Source: Bacteroidales bacterium (GTDB lineage: Bacteria > Bacteroidota > Bacteroidia > Bacteroidales > 4484-276). Taken from it: DNA of 40,190 bases. The position numbers and the translations under genes are program-made. Numbering within the stretch: position 1 is the stretch's first letter; each line of letters starts with the position of its first letter. Location of the stretch: contig JAAYIU010000071.1 in assembly GCA_012523265.1 (NCBI GenBank), forward strand, positions 1 to 40,190. Direction: 5' to 3'. Under the pieces are notes generated by a model. That model did not search any database. It worked only from the letters and a program-made list of their open reading frames with translations, and was not told where the DNA came from. Below, piece by piece: positions 19,712 through 33,472 of this stretch.

Positions 19712-22165
19712 GTGGAACCTAATCTCAACAGCCAATTATCGAATCAGGAAGAATCGATCGACATCAAACTGTTATTTATCAAGTTTTTCAGATACTGGTA
19801 TTTCTTTGCCCTCACCGTTTTTGTTGCACTGGTGATCGCTTTTCTTTTTAATAAATACACCAAACCAGTGTATGAAGTGAAGACTACCGTGCTGATTAAA
19901 GACGACAAAGCCGGACAAAATCTCATCGGCATCGGCATTGGCAACAGCCAACAAAATCTGGAAAACGAAATGGGGATCATCAACTCTTATGCGCTTGCTG
20001 CACGCACCATCAACAACCTGAATTTTGAAGTTTCCTACTACAAAGAAGATAATTTTATTACCAGCGAGTTGTACAAGTCGTCGCCCTTTGAGGTGGTGAT
20101 GGACACCGCGCATGTGCAACCCATCAATGTAAAGTTCAGCATCATCATCCAAAGCAACTCAGCTTACCAGCTCATACTTCAGGCCGAAAATGCCTCGCTC
20201 TACAGCTTTGGAGAACGCGAGGAAATTTCTACCGTCGACGACCCGATTGTGATAAACAAAACCTACAAATTTGGTGAAGAGATAGAAACCGATATTTTTA
20301 AATTCACCATTTTGCTTACTGAAAACTTCGACAAGGAAGCTATCAACCAAAACCTGTCGTTTGTTTTTAACGATTACCAAAGTCTGATCAGAACCTTCAG
20401 AAGCACCAAGCTGGAGCCTATCAACCGCGAGGCTTCCATCATCGACATCTCGATAAAAGGTGGTAATGCCCAAAAGCTTTCGGATTACCTCAACGAGCTA
20501 ACCAACCAGTATCTGCTGCGTGGCATCGAGAAGAAAAATCAAATTGCTGAGAACACCATTCGCTTTATCAACTCCGAGCTGGTAGATATCACCGATTCGC
20601 TGACATACACCGAGGGTGAGCTGCAAGATTTCAGGGTAAGCAACGAATTTATGGATATGGATTTCAAATCCACACAGGTATTTGAAGGGATGAAGCAATT
20701 TCAGGATCAAAAGGCGCAGCTCATCGTCAAGGCCAAATATTACCGCAACCTGCAGGATTATCTAAAGAAAAACCAGGACAACATCGACGACATTGTGATT
20801 CCTTCGTCGATGGGTATTGAAGACCCGTTGCTTTCACAGCTCATCAGCGGACTGGCCGAACTCTATTCAAAACGAGCCGAGGCCTTGTTCAGCTCTTCAG
20901 AGAAAAACCCGCAGGTAGCAGCCATCGACCAGCGCATCCGCACCACCAAAAAAACCATCCTGGAAAACATCCAGAACATCGTCGTTACTTCCGAAATTTC
21001 TATCAAAGACATCGACGGCCGCATAGCGGCACTTAACCGGGAAATGAACCGACTGCCCGAAACCCAGCGTCGACTGGTAGGCATACAGCGGAAGTACAAG
21101 CTCAACGATGCGCTGTACACTTTCCTGCTGCAGAAACGCTCCGAAGCACAAATAGCCAAGGCCAGCAACCTGCCCGACAACGAGGTTGTCGACATTGCCC
21201 GCAGTGGCGAACAGGTGTACCCCAAGAAGAGCCTCAACTACCTCATAGCATTGGTGCTCGGATTGTTACTCCCGGTAGCTTACATTTTGGGTAAAGATTA
21301 TTTTAATGATAAAATCATCGAGCGCAAAGACATCGAAAAGATTACCAACGTACCAATTGTCGGGCACGTGATTCACAACAGCAAGGAATCGGCACTCGTG
21401 GTGAGCGAATCGCCAAAGTCGAGCATCGCCGAATCGTTCCGCTCCATTCGTACCAACCTGCAGTATCTTACCAAAGGCAAAGAGAAGCAGGTGATATTGG
21501 TAACCAGCGACATGGTGGGCGCCGGCAAGACGTTTATTGCCATGAACATCGCCTCCATCTTTGCCATGTATGATAAGAAAACCCTGCTCATGGGCTTCGA
21601 CCTGCGCAAGCCCAAAATTTATCAGGACTTTGGCCTCACCAACACCGAAGGCATCAGCTCCTATCTTATCAACAAGAGCAGCTTTGAAGACATCGTTCAA
21701 ACCTCACCGGTAAAGAATCTCGACATCATTATGGGAGGCCCTGTGCCACCCAACCCCGCCGAGCTTATCGCGTCAGCAAAAACCAACGAGCTGATGAAAC
21801 GCGTGATGGAGGAGTACGACTTTGTGATCATCGACACCCCGCCGGTGGGTCTGGTTACAGATGCTTTCCTGCTGATGAAATATACCGACGCCAACCTGTT
21901 CCTGGTGCGCCAAAACTACACCAACAAGAAAATCTTCGAGTCGATTATCAAAGACATCGAAAACCGCAAGATGCCCAACATGTACATCCTCATCAACGAC
22001 GTGAAGCTGGGCAAAGGCTCCTACGGCTATGGTTACGGGTATGGATACGGATACGGCTATGGATACGGATACGGATATGGCTACGGCTATGGTTACGGCT
22101 ATTACTCCGAAGACGAGAAAACCGATAAGAAATCCATCATCAGCAAGCTTTTCGGGAAAGCGTAA
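19712..22165 (+). CDS. wzc: Polysaccharide co-polymerase / BY tyrosine autokinase (Wzc)
   Basis: Two TM segments flanking a periplasmic coiled region; ESFRSIRTNL, Walker A GAGKT, DLRKP, PPNPAEL, IIDTPP; C-terminal (YG)13YY. Confidence 0.92.
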   Translation: MEPNLNSQLSNQEESIDIKLLFIKFFRYWYFFALTVFVALVIAFLFNKYTKPVYEVKTTVLIKDDKAGQNLIGIGIGNSQQNLENEMGIINSYALAARTINNLNFEVSYYKEDNFITSELYKSSPFEVVMDTAHVQPINVKFSIIIQSNSAYQLILQAENASLYSFGEREEISTVDDPIVINKTYKFGEEIETDIFKFTILLTENFDKEAINQNLSFVFNDYQSLIRTFRSTKLEPINREASIIDISIKGGNAQKLSDYLNELTNQYLLRGIEKKNQIAENTIRFINSELVDITDSLTYTEGELQDFRVSNEFMDMDFKSTQVFEGMKQFQDQKAQLIVKAKYYRNLQDYLKKNQDNIDDIVIPSSMGIEDPLLSQLISGLAELYSKRAEALFSSSEKNPQVAAIDQRIRTTKKTILENIQNIVVTSEISIKDIDGRIAALNREMNRLPETQRRLVGIQRKYKLNDALYTFLLQKRSEAQIAKASNLPDNEVVDIARSGEQVYPKKSLNYLIALVLGLLLPVAYILGKDYFNDKIIERKDIEKITNVPIVGHVIHNSKESALVVSESPKSSIAESFRSIRTNLQYLTKGKEKQVILVTSDMVGAGKTFIAMNIASIFAMYDKKTLLMGFDLRKPKIYQDFGLTNTEGISSYLINKSSFEDIVQTSPVKNLDIIMGGPVPPNPAELIASAKTNELMKRVMEEYDFVIIDTPPVGLVTDAFLLMKYTDANLFLVRQNYTNKKIFESIIKDIENRKMPNMYILINDVKLGKGSYGYGYGYGYGYGYGYGYGYGYGYGYGYYSEDEKTDKKSIISKLFGKA

Positions 22166-22204
22166 TCCCTATCATTTTTTAACGCTTCCATGGAAAATAA
22201 AGCT

Positions 22205-22920
22205 GTCCACTAATTTCCGCTAATCTTTTTTTTAACCACAGAGAACGCAGAGAAGACGCAAAGAGCGCGGAGGAAAATCTCTGTGCACACTGTGAAAAAC
22301 TCCGTGTCCTCTGTGGTTTTTCTTTGGTTTTAATCTAAAATTCGTGCTCATTCGCCTAATTTGTGTGAATTCGCGGATGCTTTTGACCGTCCACTAATTT
22401 CCGCTAATTTTTTTTTAACCACAGAGAACGCAGAGAAGACGCAAAGAACGCGGAGGAAAATCTCTGTGCACTCTGCGAAAAACTCCGTGACCTCTGTGGT
22501 TTTTCTTTGGTTTTAATATAAAATTCGTGCTCATTCGCCTGATTCGTGTGAATTCGCGGATGCTTTTGACCATCCGCTAATTTCAGCTAATCTTTTTTTA
22601 ACCACATAGAGAACGCAGAGAAGACGCAAAGAACGCGGAGGGAAATCTCTGTGCACTCTGTGAAAAACTCCGTGACCTCTGTGGTTTTTCTTTGGTTTTA
22701 ATATAAAATTCGTGTTCATTCGCCTAATTCGTGCGAATTCGAGGATAAACCGGCTGTCCGCTAATTTCCGCCAATTGAGCTAATTTCCGCTAATTATTTT
22801 TAACCACAGAGAACGCAGAGAAGACGCAAAGAACGCGGAGGAAAATCTCTGTGCACTCTGTGAAAAACTCCGCGGCCTCTGTGGTTTTTCTTAAAATTGA
22901 ATTCGTGTGAATTCGCGGAC
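22205..22920. repeat. Tandem array of four ~184-bp nested-palindrome units
   Basis: Units start at about 22205, 22389, 22572 and 22756. Each has an inner 85-87 bp AACCAC...CTCTGTGGTT palindrome enclosed by TCCRCTAATTTCCGCTAAT ... ATTCGTGTGAATTCGCGGA arms. Confidence 0.95.
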
Positions 22921-22927
22921 TTCATTA

Positions 22928-24370
22928 TCATTTAGCGACAGCGAAAACACGCCTTCTCATCCACCACAACAAAAGATACACCACTGCCGAAGTGGTAATA
23001 CCAAAGATATTGGCATCGAGGCCGAAAGGTAAATTCCATTCGGCGATGATAAGGGTGATGGTGGTAGTGCCACCAAGCAACATAGCTGCAAATGCCGCCA
23101 CCTTATCGGGCTGGCGCGTGTACAAAGCCGCAATGACAGGAACAAAAAGTCCGGAAACCATAAAAGCGTAAGAATAGAGCATTAGCTCCAGCACGTTTTG
23201 CATGGTGGTGGCAAGCAATAGCGCCAGCGCTCCAATGAGAAATGTAAGCAGTTGCGAGATGCGCAACATGGCCTTGCCTGTGGGAAGCTTCACCAGGCGG
23301 CTCACGATATCGGTAAGCACATTGCCCGACGAGGCCATCAGGCAACTATCAGCGGTGGACATGATGGCCGAGAAATATGCCGACATCATCAGCCCCATCA
23401 GGCCTACCGGTAAAATGGTGCGCAGCAGCAGCGGCAGCCCCATTTCGGGATCGATATCGCTTAACGAATTAAATCCAAGATACTCGAACATACCTTCCTG
23501 CAGCGCTACACGCGAAAAAAGCCCCAACAGCACGCCCATAAATGCCATGAGCGGCCACTCGAAAACGCCTGCTATAAACCATGCTTTGCGTGCCTGTCGT
23601 TCGCTGTTGCTGGCATAGATGCGCTGGTAGAGTGTCATACCCACAAACCAGATGGGAATAATGGTTACCGCCCAGTTGACAATGGTTTGCCACGACACGT
23701 TGGTCATGCTGAAAAAACGTGCCGGCAATGCAGCCAGAATGCTTTGGTATCCGCCTAAAGCGAAATAACTCAATGGGATGCCGATAAGGATAAGTCCGGA
23801 GATAAGCAGCAGCCATTGGATGGTATCGGTATAAATTACGGCCTTGAGACCACCCATCACGGTGTAGGCCACGGTGATGATGCCCATTATCAAGAGCGCA
23901 GTATCGAAACTAAGGTTTACAAATGAAGCAGAGGCCAGCTTGGCTCCGGCCAGAATTTGGGAGCTGGTAAAGCCCATGTAGCCAATAGCCGAAATAATGC
24001 CCGCCAGAATGGCTACCTCTTTGCCATAGAAATGCCTAAAGATTTCGGGGAAGGTGAAAAACTTATGTTTTGTCGAAAGGCGAAAAACACGCGGGATAAG
24101 AACAACAGCACTCAGCCAGGCACCGATAAGACCGGTAAAGAGCATCCAGGAGCCGGCCAGCCCCAGCACAAAACCCAATCCACCAAGGCCAATAGAAAAA
24201 CCGCCACCCACATCGGTGGCTACCACCGACAAGCCAATATGCCAACTGCCCATGGTGCGGCCACCCACAAAATAATCCTCAGCGCTGGTGTTGCGACGCA
24301 TGAAATAATACCCAACACCCAACATCGCCAACATGTAAAGAACAAATATCGAAAGGTCGATCCAATGCAT
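22928..24370 (-). CDS. Sodium:solute symporter (SSS) family transporter
   Basis: Highly hydrophobic; EDYFVGGR, YTVMGGLKAVIYTDTIQ and SAIMSTADS motifs. Confidence 0.9.
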   Translation of the reverse strand: MHWIDLSIFVLYMLAMLGVGYYFMRRNTSAEDYFVGGRTMGSWHIGLSVVATDVGGGFSIGLGGLGFVLGLAGSWMLFTGLIGAWLSAVVLIPRVFRLSTKHKFFTFPEIFRHFYGKEVAILAGIISAIGYMGFTSSQILAGAKLASASFVNLSFDTALLIMGIITVAYTVMGGLKAVIYTDTIQWLLLISGLILIGIPLSYFALGGYQSILAALPARFFSMTNVSWQTIVNWAVTIIPIWFVGMTLYQRIYASNSERQARKAWFIAGVFEWPLMAFMGVLLGLFSRVALQEGMFEYLGFNSLSDIDPEMGLPLLLRTILPVGLMGLMMSAYFSAIMSTADSCLMASSGNVLTDIVSRLVKLPTGKAMLRISQLLTFLIGALALLLATTMQNVLELMLYSYAFMVSGLFVPVIAALYTRQPDKVAAFAAMLLGGTTTITLIIAEWNLPFGLDANIFGITTSAVVYLLLWWMRRRVFAVAK

Positions 24371-27035: not shown

Positions 27036-27040
27036 ACGGT

Positions 27041-27144
27041 GTTCGTTGTTTGTTGTTTGTTGTTCGTTGTTTGTTGTTTGTTGCTCAAAATTGTTCTTAC
27101 TGAAGGCTGGTAACTGCTAACTGTGAATTGTGGACTGTTGTCTG
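27041..27144. repeat. Two adjacent 7-bp-period tracts
   Basis: (GTTCGTT GTTTGTT GTTTGTT) x2 at 27041-27082; degenerate CTGnnnn x6 at 27100-27144. Confidence 0.8.
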
Positions 27145-32273: not shown

Positions 32274-32550
32274 ACTGCAGAGAGCCTCTGCGGTGATTCT
32301 TATCTTTTCTCTGTTTTCTCAGTGCCTTCTCTGCGTCCTCTGTGGTAAAAAAAAGAGCGCGCAGCGCGATCTTTATTCCTCTGTGGTGATTATTCAAAAA
32401 GCAAAAACCGCGGAGACGCCAAGACGCGGAGAAAAAGATAATAACGCTGCGCCTCTCCGCCTCTGCGGTGATTCTTATCTTTTCTCTGTTTTCTCAGTGC
32501 CTTCTCTGCGTCCTCTGTGGTAAAAAAAAGGATCGCGAAACGCGATCTTT
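32274..32550. repeat. Two tandem copies of a ~175-bp modular palindromic repeat, left of ssb
   Basis: CTCTGCGGTGATTC...CTCTGTGGTAAAAAAAAG recurs at 32286 and 32461; the first copy has a collapsed first hairpin. Confidence 0.92.
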
Positions 32551-32770: not shown

Positions 32771-33112
32771 ATGAAATCTTTAAGAAACAGTGTTCACCTG
32801 ATCGGCAACCTGGGAATGGATCCGGAAGTAAAAGATGTGTCTAATGGCCGCAAAATGGCTCGCTTCTCGCTGGCCACCTCCGACAGTTACATCAACCAAA
32901 AAGGCGAGAAAGTTACCGAAACCCAATGGCACAACCTGGTAATCTGGGGCAAGCTGGCCGAAGTGGCCGGGCAATATCTAAAAAAAGGAAAGCAAATAGC
33001 TGTAGAAGGCAAACTGGAAACCAGCATCTTCGACGACAAAAATGGCAACCGCAAGTATTACACGCAAATTGTGGTAAACGACCTGCTTATGCTCAGCGGG
33101 AAAAGCAACTAA
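32771..33112 (+). CDS. ssb: Short single-stranded DNA-binding protein (OB fold only, no acidic tail)
   Basis: NSVHLIGNLGMDPE, FSLATSD, TQWHNLVIWGKLAE and LKKGKQIAVEGKL motifs; 113 aa ending LMLSGKSN. Confidence 0.93.
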   Translation: MKSLRNSVHLIGNLGMDPEVKDVSNGRKMARFSLATSDSYINQKGEKVTETQWHNLVIWGKLAEVAGQYLKKGKQIAVEGKLETSIFDDKNGNRKYYTQIVVNDLLMLSGKSN

Positions 33113-33125
33113 AAGTTGGGATTAA

Positions 33126-33433
33126 ACCGCGGAGACGCCAAGACGCGGAGAAAAAGATAATTACGCTGCGCCTCTGCGTCTCTGCGGTGATTCTACTCTT
33201 TTCTCTGTTTTCTCAGTGCCTTCTCTGCGTCCTCTGTGGTAAAAAAAAGAGCGCGCAGCGCGATCTTTGTGCCTCTGTGGTGATTCTTCAAAAAGCAAAA
33301 AACCGCGGAGACGCCAAGACGCGGAGAAAACAATAATAACGCTCCGTCTCTGCGGTGATTCAAAGCTTTTCTCTGTTTTCTCAGTGCCTTCTCTGCGTCC
33401 TCTGTGGTAAAAAAAGAGCGCACAGCGCGATAT
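33126..33433. repeat. Two tandem copies of the same ~176-bp repeat, right of ssb
   Basis: ACCGCGGAGACGCCAAGACGCGGAG starts at 33126 and 33302, same orientation as the copy at 32407. Confidence 0.92.
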
Positions 33434-33472
33434 TCTTAGTTAAACATCCAATAGTACCGCACTCGAAGAAAA

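Follow-up and report, generated by a model that had tools for sequence, protein, structure and literature searches.

A tandem array of nested box palindromes in a Bacteroidales genome, probably made up of gene-less derivatives of GxxExxY nuclease cassettes

What kind of element fills almost the whole gap between two convergent genes, one for a Wzc-type chain-length determinant and the other for a sodium:solute symporter (SSF), in a genome bin of a Bacteroidales bacterium? The DNA analysed, called the window here, is a stretch of 40,190 nucleotides (JAAYIU010000071.1, contig C436 of bin G000). The bin has 3.98 Mb in 476 contigs, a G+C content of 47.5 %, a completeness of 93 % and a contamination of 2.6 %. 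The stop codons of the two genes are 762 nt apart, and 716 nt of this interval (22205-22920) are repeat, starting 40 nt from the stop codon of the Wzc-type gene and ending 8 nt from that of the SSF gene. An earlier note, made from the letters of the window, had described four near-identical units of about 184 bp, each a palindrome within a palindrome. This layout was confirmed: the array consists of four tandem units of ~183 bp in which an inner palindrome, A, is enclosed by an outer one, B. Both types of arm are those of a widespread small nuclease cassette that carries a GxxExxY gene (PF13366, of the PD-(D/E)xK type). The array probably represents gene-less, nested derivatives of such cassettes that were amplified in tandem, with boxes that would be bound by the nuclease and with mobilisation in trans, a reading drawn from sequence comparison.

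Tandem Repeats Finder (TRF) placed the array at 22205-22892, with a period of 183, 3.7 copies, 89 % matches and a score of 1016. A repeat search returned four 99-nt copies around the inner element, with 92-96 % identity to the reference copy and spacings of 183, 185 and 200; the left outer box pair is present five times. A is a palindrome of 85-87 nt with four CRCRRAG boxes facing four complements across a loop that has 6 nt in the window. The left boxes (CACAGAG, CGCAGAG, CGCAAAG and CGCGGAG) start 9, 11 and 9 nt apart and the right boxes (CTCTGTG, CTCTGCG, CTCCGTG and CTCTGTG) 9, 12 and 9 nt apart. The inner coordinates and the RCRRAG/CTCYGY boxes at 9-12 bp given in the earlier note were recovered both with an nhmmer profile and by reading the sequence. 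For the A copy of unit 3, the profile call was 22605-22686; owing to a 2-nt insertion (CACATAGAG) this copy spans 22600-22686. The termini of A in the window, AACCACAGAG and CTCTGTGGTT, match each other, with the consensus AACCRCAGAG / CTCTGYGGTT over 32 distinct copies, and the linkers between the boxes (AA/AC, AAGA/AAAAA and AA/CA) are unpaired, appearing as internal loops in the RNAfold drawing.

The enclosing repeat B is made of different boxes, CCRC(T/G)AAT facing boxes of the ATTCGYG type, with GTCCRC and GYGGAY as termini. Its left side reads GTCCACTAATTTCCGCTAAT and its right side ATTCGTG..ATTCGCC..ATTTGTG..GAATTCGCGGAT. Unit 4 does have the two extra left boxes that had been noticed before, as the stretch 22756-22801 holds four. 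The right boxes of B, the spacer and the next left boxes also form a hairpin, which allows two readings of the array, one as nested units and one as A and B hairpins in alternation. No unique spacers were found in the window array, every stretch between A copies being itself repeated, and it is thus no CRISPR array.

Neither module is confined to this locus. An nhmmer profile built from the four A copies of the window found 58 distinct places on 28 contigs of G000, of which 25, on 13 contigs, score at least 55 bits; a B profile gave 53 matches on 27 contigs. As many as 21 of the 58 A places are within 400 nt of a contig end, and since the assembly breaks at A copies the true number must be higher. 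Clusters of at least three A-type boxes occur 81 times in the genome and not once in a shuffled genome. Among 30 A loci there are 12 with a single copy, 12 with two, four with three, one with four (the window) and one with six, which makes 18 of them tandem. The units are mosaics: some hold a third module, ACCGCTGAGACGCTGAGACGCAGAGG, a single copy on C13 combines the left boxes of B with A but lacks the right boxes of B, and arrays of A-like subfamilies without B are present on C452 (seven units of 106 nt), C92 (three of 94 nt), C404, C382 and C235. No open reading frame (ORF) is carried; the only frame of at least 60 aa in the array, of 62 aa, runs across the repeats. The element thus behaves as non-autonomous and multi-copy, as had been supposed. 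At most 50 nt separate the array from a gene stop codon in 11 of 15 loci, and two arrays lie between divergent genes. Transfer RNA genes adjoin box arrays at C201:4700-5010, where two tRNA-like genes stand between A/B units and a B-only array, and at C100:12540-12640, where a tRNA gene follows immediately to the right of the array. An Rfam search of 21900-23200 (E up to 10) yielded six chance-level eukaryotic families, the best with 22.9 bits against a gathering threshold of 40, and a literature search, supplements excluded, brought up no described family for the array.

The earlier note had suggested that such palindromes often flank GxxExxY genes, and this link was found in the relatives. 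PF13366 genes are present in 32 of 41 related genomes, with 1-13 in each, and box arrays adjoin the gene in all 20 loci that were read by eye. A cassette consists of a gene of ~120 aa between inverted arrays of 7-nt boxes that are iterated every 8-12 nt. The boxes are of several kinds (CACAGAG, CACAAAG, CACTAAG, CGCAGAT, CACTGAT and CGCGAAT/CGCTAAT), nearly all with the head CRC, which is CCRC at the terminus, and a variable tail of 4 nt; arms of the CCACAGAG type and of the CCACGAAT/CGCTAAT type both enclose GxxExxY genes. B-type arms (CGCGAAT/CGCTAAT, with AAT tails) surround genes within the same genus, at L098 in G002 and L104 in G007.

For the arms of A, the query was a pattern of 30 nt from the left arm, degenerate (R) at four positions. 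It occurs on 5 contigs among the species representatives and at 30 metagenome loci, in records titled Chitinophaga, Bacteroidetes and Ignavibacteriaceae and in a doubtful 'Clostridia' metagenome-assembled genome (MAG). There are 41 distinct matches, as 3 of the 44 listed are the same places in two overlapping loci. Twenty are gene-less palindromes that close at 76-86 nt, seven close at another distance (62-139 nt), in twelve the right terminus was not found by the pattern, and two have an ORF between the arms. In the latter two, L059 (from an Ignavibacteriaceae bin) and L070, the left arm is followed by the ORF and the ORF directly by the right arm (CTCTGCGACTTCTCAGCGCCCTCTGCGGTT), which ends in CTCTGCGGTT. 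The ORF scores 152.5 bits with TIGR04256 (cut-off 35) and 145.7 bits with PF13366, and the left arm differs from that of A in the window at 3 of 32 positions. As the arms enclose the ORF, the gene occupies the site of the 6-nt loop of A in the window. The array has iterated CRCNNNN arms that are homologous to those of gene-bearing cassettes, and it can on this basis be placed, provisionally and without the gene itself, in a grouping proposed here, the GxxExxY box-arm cassette.

The coupling between arms and gene was examined with 61 GxxExxY genes from the relatives, 55 of them with both flanks. In a flank test a local inverted-complementarity score was computed between two stretches of 160 nt, one preceding the conserved core and the other following the stop codon. 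A score of at least 20 was reached by 24 of the 55 cognate pairs versus 7 of 433 non-cognate pairs (medians of 18 and 11). Upstream, the distance from the start of the arm to the core is 12-110 nt; downstream, the arm starts 0-98 nt behind the stop codon. The deepest split in the protein tree has a support of 99 in the Shimodaira-Hasegawa-like approximate likelihood-ratio test (SH-aLRT). Loci were given a box-class label when they held at least four boxes of one class, a threshold of the author's choice that was reached by 45 of the 61 loci and left 16 below it. On one side of the split are 34 rows (26 AG, 3 GAT, no AAT and 5 unclassed) and on the other 27 (no AG, 12 GAT, 4 AAT and 11 unclassed). 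The box-tail labels require 4 changes on the tree versus a mean of 16.3 after shuffling, and none of 200 shuffles was as low. One and the same genome can contain paralogues from the two clades, with different arms for each, and host relatedness does therefore not explain the pattern of tails and clades. Arms and gene are inherited together.

No variation was seen among the 61 proteins at the residues G, G, E, Y, D, E-x-K and NF. An AlphaFold model of a GxxExxY protein has a predicted local distance difference test (pLDDT) score of 96.1. Among solved folds it comes closest to Cas4 (4ic1, 4r5q), lambda exonuclease and the RecB-type nuclease domains of AddAB/AdnAB, with template modelling (TM) scores of 0.5-0.58, Hjc being lower; a search by sequence gave no solved structure for a GxxExxY protein at E up to 0.01. 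Judged from the invariant residues and the model, the nuclease looks active. Its function is entered as 'Unknown' in an excerpt of a survey (PMC3424549), and no paper in the literature search ties GxxExxY/PF13366 genes to flanking repeats.

A mechanism can be proposed along these lines. A and B would be cassettes that are 'empty', whether as non-autonomous derivatives or as vacant sites, and A would sit nested at the position of the gene of B. The cognate nuclease would bind the iterated boxes in duplex DNA and, supplied in trans, may cut at the arms or between them. Copies would then undergo repair or recombination, by which the cassette and its gene-less forms are moved or copied. The composite unit would have been multiplied head to tail by unequal recombination or slippage between near-identical boxes and units, processes that may also have spread or homogenised the units among the ~30 loci.

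Comparison with the relatives revealed a rapid turnover; the arrays expand, contract and differ between species. Matches to the 184-nt unit were found in 12 of the 41 genomes, 54 in G000, 24 (fragments) in the sister species G002 and at most 4 in any other, and palindromes of the same design with another sequence occur across the order. At the SSF locus of G002 (94 % protein identity), the left neighbour is a different one and a single B-like element with left boxes and degenerate right boxes is present without A; no B-like element was found there in G001 and G006. At the C100 locus, G002 has five tandem B-only units, each with left boxes, the loop TATTTTTT and right boxes, and G007 has right boxes only; in G000 the A palindrome sits inside the loop of B. 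At C114 a B-only array in G002 corresponds to three A+B units in G000, and G007 and G005 carry 146 and 115 nt of unrelated sequence. The comparisons indicate that B is the older module at these sites, that A lies in the centre of B in the lineage of G000 and that the number of units shifts quickly. The nesting and tandem amplification postulated earlier are thus both visible, the latter also in an array orthologous to that on C452, which has 3 units in another bin versus 7 in G000. A locus in a MAG titled 'Clostridia bacterium' (L056, SABY01000038.1, 10080-13109) contains an array and flank orthologous to G000 C452:3300-4150; the taxon label of this record looks doubtful. Clean empty sites for the gene-bearing cassettes of G007 were not found, the boundaries being blurred at 70-80 % identity; at these sites G008 and G001 have 89-134 bp with a few CACAG/CTGTG motifs instead of 670-730 bp.

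Several observations weigh against mobilisation by a GxxExxY nuclease. No such gene or fragment was found in the 93 %-complete G000 with PF13366, with tblastn using 61 queries or with an own hidden Markov model (HMM). The statement of the earlier note that the window has no GxxExxY gene thus extends to the whole assembly, and the local copies may be relics that now change only by recombination. The gene-bearing copy of the A arms comes from another phylum. Co-inheritance of gene and arms can by itself suffice for the clustering of box types on the protein tree. Neither a target-site duplication at the ends of the array nor a clean empty site was found; the orthologous sites available for comparison are 6-30 % diverged and have blurred boundaries. 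The literature search brought up no report of binding, cutting or transposition. The count of four units comes from this one assembly, because no contig spans the array. The same architecture is also shared by genes of a non-nuclease family, PF05635: in the relatives, their flanks score at least 20 in 12 of 25 cognate versus 9 of 190 non-cognate pairs, and a nuclease may thus not be required for the arms to serve as a vehicle.

PF05635 comprises four-helix-bundle proteins and is the family of the ORF in rRNA intervening sequences. It has 6-10 matches in G000, and its genes are bracketed by inverted arrays of their own, with quite different boxes of 7-9 nt. Such cassettes are located in G000 at C20:87-1013, C19:1466-2114, C72:12140-12860 and C141:8428-8890 and in the locus set L139-L168. 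At G007:C25:4166-7563, G001:C315:624-5270 and G008:C33:8557-11180, a few kb at most separate GxxExxY from four-helix-bundle genes, as if the two kinds of cassette gather in small islands.

That the four-unit array is an artefact of short-read assembly, mis-joined or mis-counted, is hardly credible. Contigs from four sequencing runs do stop at 22232/22255 and resume at 22887, none of them bridging the interior, two runs contain joints that skip 187-191 nt (22567 to 22755/22759), and A copies are frequent at contig ends, as mentioned above; the interior gap and the joints skipping one unit are, in run contigs, indistinguishable from the effect of other genomic A copies. Both flank junctions are, however, exact in three runs of different studies, and short contigs match the unit-specific stretches 22235-22319, 22332-22425 and 22298-22361 exactly. 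Moreover, the units differ by 4-8 % among themselves, unit 4 has a structure of its own, and the family is tandem at 18 loci and in other genomes. The runs that contain at least half of the sampled words, 16 of the 24 listed, are metagenomes from anaerobic digesters, wastewater, landfill, sludge and manure.

The conservation of boxes next to mismatched linkers had led to the suggestion of either iterated protein-binding sites or a bulged hairpin of single-stranded DNA or RNA. This conservation was found again, with 86-87 % complementary columns between the arms in the boxes versus 63-73 % in the linkers. The choice between the two, which had been left open, leans toward boxes recognised in double-stranded DNA rather than a stem of RNA under selection, as far as can be judged from the pattern of mismatches. 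With this one choice no firmer than a leaning, every testable part of the earlier interpretation is supported.

According to the alternative, the elements would act as RNA or single-strand hairpins, that is, as transcription terminators, stabilisers of the 3' untranslated region (UTR) or RNase III sites in the transcript of the neighbouring gene's 3' end; the genes would be passengers, and the boxes would serve no purpose beyond the formation of a stem. A small gene enclosed by the arms would then be excised from the host transcript, in the manner of the stem of the 23S rRNA intervening sequences; that of Coxiella has a 28-bp terminal stem cut by RNase III, according to excerpts of PMC4990558. 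All 23 full A copies indeed fold alike, into four helices with -25 to -50 kcal/mol (on average -36.3 on the plus strand versus -33.6), and the whole array as RNA folds at z = -5.3. The proximity of 11 of the 15 array loci to a stop codon and the architecture in common with the four-helix-bundle genes of the rRNA intervening-sequence family fit in as well. On the plus strand each A is followed by a T-run (TTTTTCTT), of which a terminator scan picked one in four (22870-22884); on the minus strand the A hairpin is followed by an A-run. Against this, a sense-strand excess of mismatches compatible with G·U pairing was not found: transitions of the G·U type number 57 versus 68 in 29 gene cassettes and 45 versus 51 in 32 A copies. 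Transversions make up many of the arm mismatches (275 of 1667 aligned columns), the helices measure only 7 bp and are separated by unpaired linkers, the A-T-rich arms of B remain unpaired in the minimum-energy fold, and a single unit folded as DNA has a z of -1.0. Furthermore, the orientation to the upstream gene varies, and two arrays lie between divergent genes. Covariation in the A family is uninformative on pairing because the copies are too alike, most columns being at least 90 % identical. One metatranscriptome run gave a contig of 168 nt that covers 22062-22229 without a difference; since an RNA library can hold DNA, it does not demonstrate transcription into the array. Taken together, a role as hairpins is unlikely.

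Duplex recognition could also be exerted by proteins of the host. The boxes would then form binding arrays for nucleoid proteins, gyrase or IHF-like proteins, kept for the organisation of the chromosome, and selfish genes would merely land there. Boxes that recur about every helical turn (9-12 nt) and that are better conserved than their linkers would suit such a function, and BIMEs (bacterial interspersed mosaic elements) are reported to bind several proteins (excerpts of PMC2817692). The genome has 623 other short-period arrays (7-13 nt by TRF, ~22 kb in total), with GCAGGGC (48 arrays), AAATTCC (33), AACAACG (19) and AAATCGT (16) as recurrent families. Some of these nest as palindromes, such as GGGCGCA boxes around AAATTCC boxes. 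Pairing of the TRF arrays by inverted consensus gave only 9 pairs and is too crude a procedure, because most arms are missed. Examples of short-period arrays are those at C65:8371-8501, C69:16185-16400, C230:2593-2892 and C188:3300-3730. The sequence of the boxes, however, varies by lineage and tracks the clade of the enclosed nuclease and not the host, and turnover is fast, with orthologous sites often empty. This is not the pattern of a conserved host function, and the explanation is improbable.

Tandem mosaics of palindromes are also characteristic of clusters of repetitive extragenic palindromes (REPs) and BIMEs, according to excerpts of PMC3333891 and PMC2817692, and the array could in principle be an ordinary REP/BIME mobilised by a Y1 transposase of the genome, of the REP-associated tyrosine transposase (RAYT) or IS200-like kind. 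Three PF01797 genes (77-102 bits) are indeed present in G000. These are, however, flanked by short G+C-rich GTAG/CTAC hairpins (CCGTAGCCCAGGCCTTCAGGCCTGGG) and not by boxes of A or B, and A measures 85 nt and lacks a GTAG or CGTC tag. A RAYT link to the array was rejected on account of this difference in flanking hairpins, and mobilisation of this kind is highly improbable. The Y1 genes, at C465:930-1700, C136:6380-6520 and C175:40-80, and their short hairpins, with for instance a repeated CCGTAGCCCAGGCCTTCAGGC, look like classical REP/RAYT pairs.

In its logic, REP/BIME with RAYT is nevertheless the nearest analogue of the elements described here. REPs and REPINs (hairpin-forming pairs of REPs) of E. 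coli and Pseudomonas are likewise intergenic, multi-copy palindromes, often at gene 3' ends and in tandem mosaics of alternating hairpins. In both systems a given repeat class goes with a single clade of a small nuclease-type gene, which has its own repeats on either side, and one genome can hold several such pairs (for the REP side, excerpts of PMC3333891, PMC2817692 and PMC3116915). The defining features of REPs, namely size, tag and Y1 gene, are not shared. Whereas REPs are single G+C-rich hairpins of 20-40 bp with a GTAG/CGTC tag (excerpts of PMC3733652), the arms in the window family have 40 nt, with four 7-nt boxes and unpaired A-rich linkers. The gene of the cassettes encodes a PD-(D/E)xK nuclease instead of a Y1 enzyme and lies inside the palindrome, and palindromes are nested. 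The array may be read as alternating hairpins in tandem like those of a BIME, but the hairpins would be two different box palindromes instead of one REP in two orientations.

Other known systems share part of these features. Like miniature inverted-repeat transposable elements (MITEs), the elements are short, gene-less and dispersed and have termini in common with a gene-bearing partner, as A of the window has with L059 and L070. Unlike in MITEs, this partner encodes a GxxExxY nuclease and no known transposase, no target-site duplication was found with orthologous sites too diverged to place the boundaries, the termini in the window are iterated box arrays instead of one inverted repeat, and tandem arrays are the rule. 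The 23S rRNA intervening sequences of Coxiella and Leptospira also have a small ORF within complementary termini, are regarded as selfish and have gene-less forms; their PF05635 family is the same as that in box-array cassettes of G000 and relatives. They are located within rRNA, however, where RNase III cuts a stem of 28 bp that is nearly perfect (excerpts of PMC4990558), whereas box arms are found between protein genes and show poor pairing except in the boxes. As in homing, cutting of an allele without the gene, followed by repair with the arms as homology, could spread the small nuclease gene. Free-standing homing endonuclease genes include PD-(D/E)xK ones such as that for I-Ssp6803I, each with one long target, whereas the cassettes would have dozens of vacant sites made of short iterated boxes. 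Pneumococcal BOX elements and the heptamer arrays of cyanobacteria known as short tandemly repeated repetitive (STRR) sequences are modular repeats as well, with a variable number of sub-units and the ability to fold into hairpins; their sequences are not related to the window array, and we know of no mobilising enzyme and of no report of a gene-bearing form for them.

The preferred reading, gene-less GxxExxY cassettes mobilised in trans, can be extended to a more general proposal, which is put forward here tentatively. Box-arm cassettes may be an undescribed class of prokaryotic selfish elements in which a minimal protein, the GxxExxY nuclease of 120 aa or, in a parallel lineage, a four-helix-bundle protein, recognises box arrays and spreads in a homing-like manner. 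The constant CRC head and the lineage-specific 4-nt tail would then form a simple modular code of protein-DNA recognition. Spread of the gene would involve the cutting of gene-less palindromes of the matching box type, into which it is then copied by repair; palindromes without a gene would become nested one in the centre of another and accumulate in tandem. Such a class would, if true, explain hundreds of short-period arrays in Bacteroidota-like, Ignavibacteria and probably cyanobacterial genomes. GxxExxY is a large family with many paralogues per genome, and the box arms provide a testable role for it and likewise for the four-helix-bundle proteins. If tail and protein co-vary by direct recognition, the boxes would represent a compact natural DNA-recognition code and a second REP/RAYT-like partnership, built on a different enzyme. 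For genomics, much of the intergenic repeat content at which these assemblies break consists of box-arm elements; the arrays mark synteny breakpoints, as at the SSF locus with its different left neighbours in sister species, and cause many contig ends in metagenome bins.

The features of the array and its two flanking genes are listed in Table 1.

Table 1. Parts of the box-palindrome array and the genes next to it, in window coordinates
Feature	Position	Strand	Remarks
Left flanking gene, Wzc-type chain-length determinant / tyrosine kinase	19712-22165	+	Pfam Wzz, GNVR, AAA_31; outside the element
Unit 1, B left boxes GTCCACTAAT, CCGCTAAT plus T-run	22205-22232	+	Direct-repeat family D3
Unit 1, inner palindrome A, 4 + 4 boxes	22234-22318	+	nhmmer 97.2 bits; hairpin -39.5 kcal/mol
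Unit 1, A tail TTTCTTTGGTTTTAATCTAAA, B right boxes ATTCGTG, ATTCGCC, ATTTGTG, ATTCGCGG, spacer	22319-22388	+	Family D4; blastn 95.7 %
Unit 2, B left boxes	22389-22416	+	Repeat search, blastn
Unit 2, inner palindrome A	22417-22501	+	Repeat search, nhmmer, RNAfold
Unit 2, A tail, B right boxes, spacer	22502-22572	+	Repeat search, blastn
Unit 3, B left boxes ATCCGCTAAT, CAGCTAAT	22573-22599	+	Direct-repeat family D3, 89 %
Unit 3, inner palindrome A, 2-nt insertion in first box (CACATAGAG)	22600-22686	+	Sequence, repeat search, nhmmer
Unit 3, A tail, B right boxes, spacer	22687-22755	+	Repeat search, blastn
Unit 4, B left boxes, four versus two	22756-22801	+	TRF period 10, 4.0 copies at 22757-22795; D3
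Unit 4, inner palindrome A	22802-22886	+	Repeat search, nhmmer, RNAfold
Unit 4, shortened right side, two B right boxes (22900-22920); its end GAATTCGCGGAC is the right terminus of the array	22887-22920	+	Sequence, repeat search, blastn
Right flanking gene, sodium:solute symporter	22928-24370	-	Pfam SSF, 154.5 bits; outside the element

Other repeats were seen in the window. The 3' end of the Wzc-type gene (22022-22102) encodes a Tyr-Gly repeat (TRF period 12/30, about GYGYGYGY), presumably the C-terminal tyrosine cluster of a bacterial tyrosine kinase (BY-kinase), and contigs of many other organisms from the sequencing runs pile up on it. At 27040-27083 TRF found a heptamer array, TGTTTGT x 6.3, which may belong to the genome-wide population of short-period arrays. 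A second composite family of box palindromes brackets the ssb gene (32771-33112, Pfam SSB 114 bits) with two units per side, at 32290-32550 and 33120-33440. The family is composed of ACCGCGGAGACGCCAAGACGCGGAG...CTCTGCGGT, of a module that has only the right arm and ends in CTCTGTGGT, and of a small GC hairpin.

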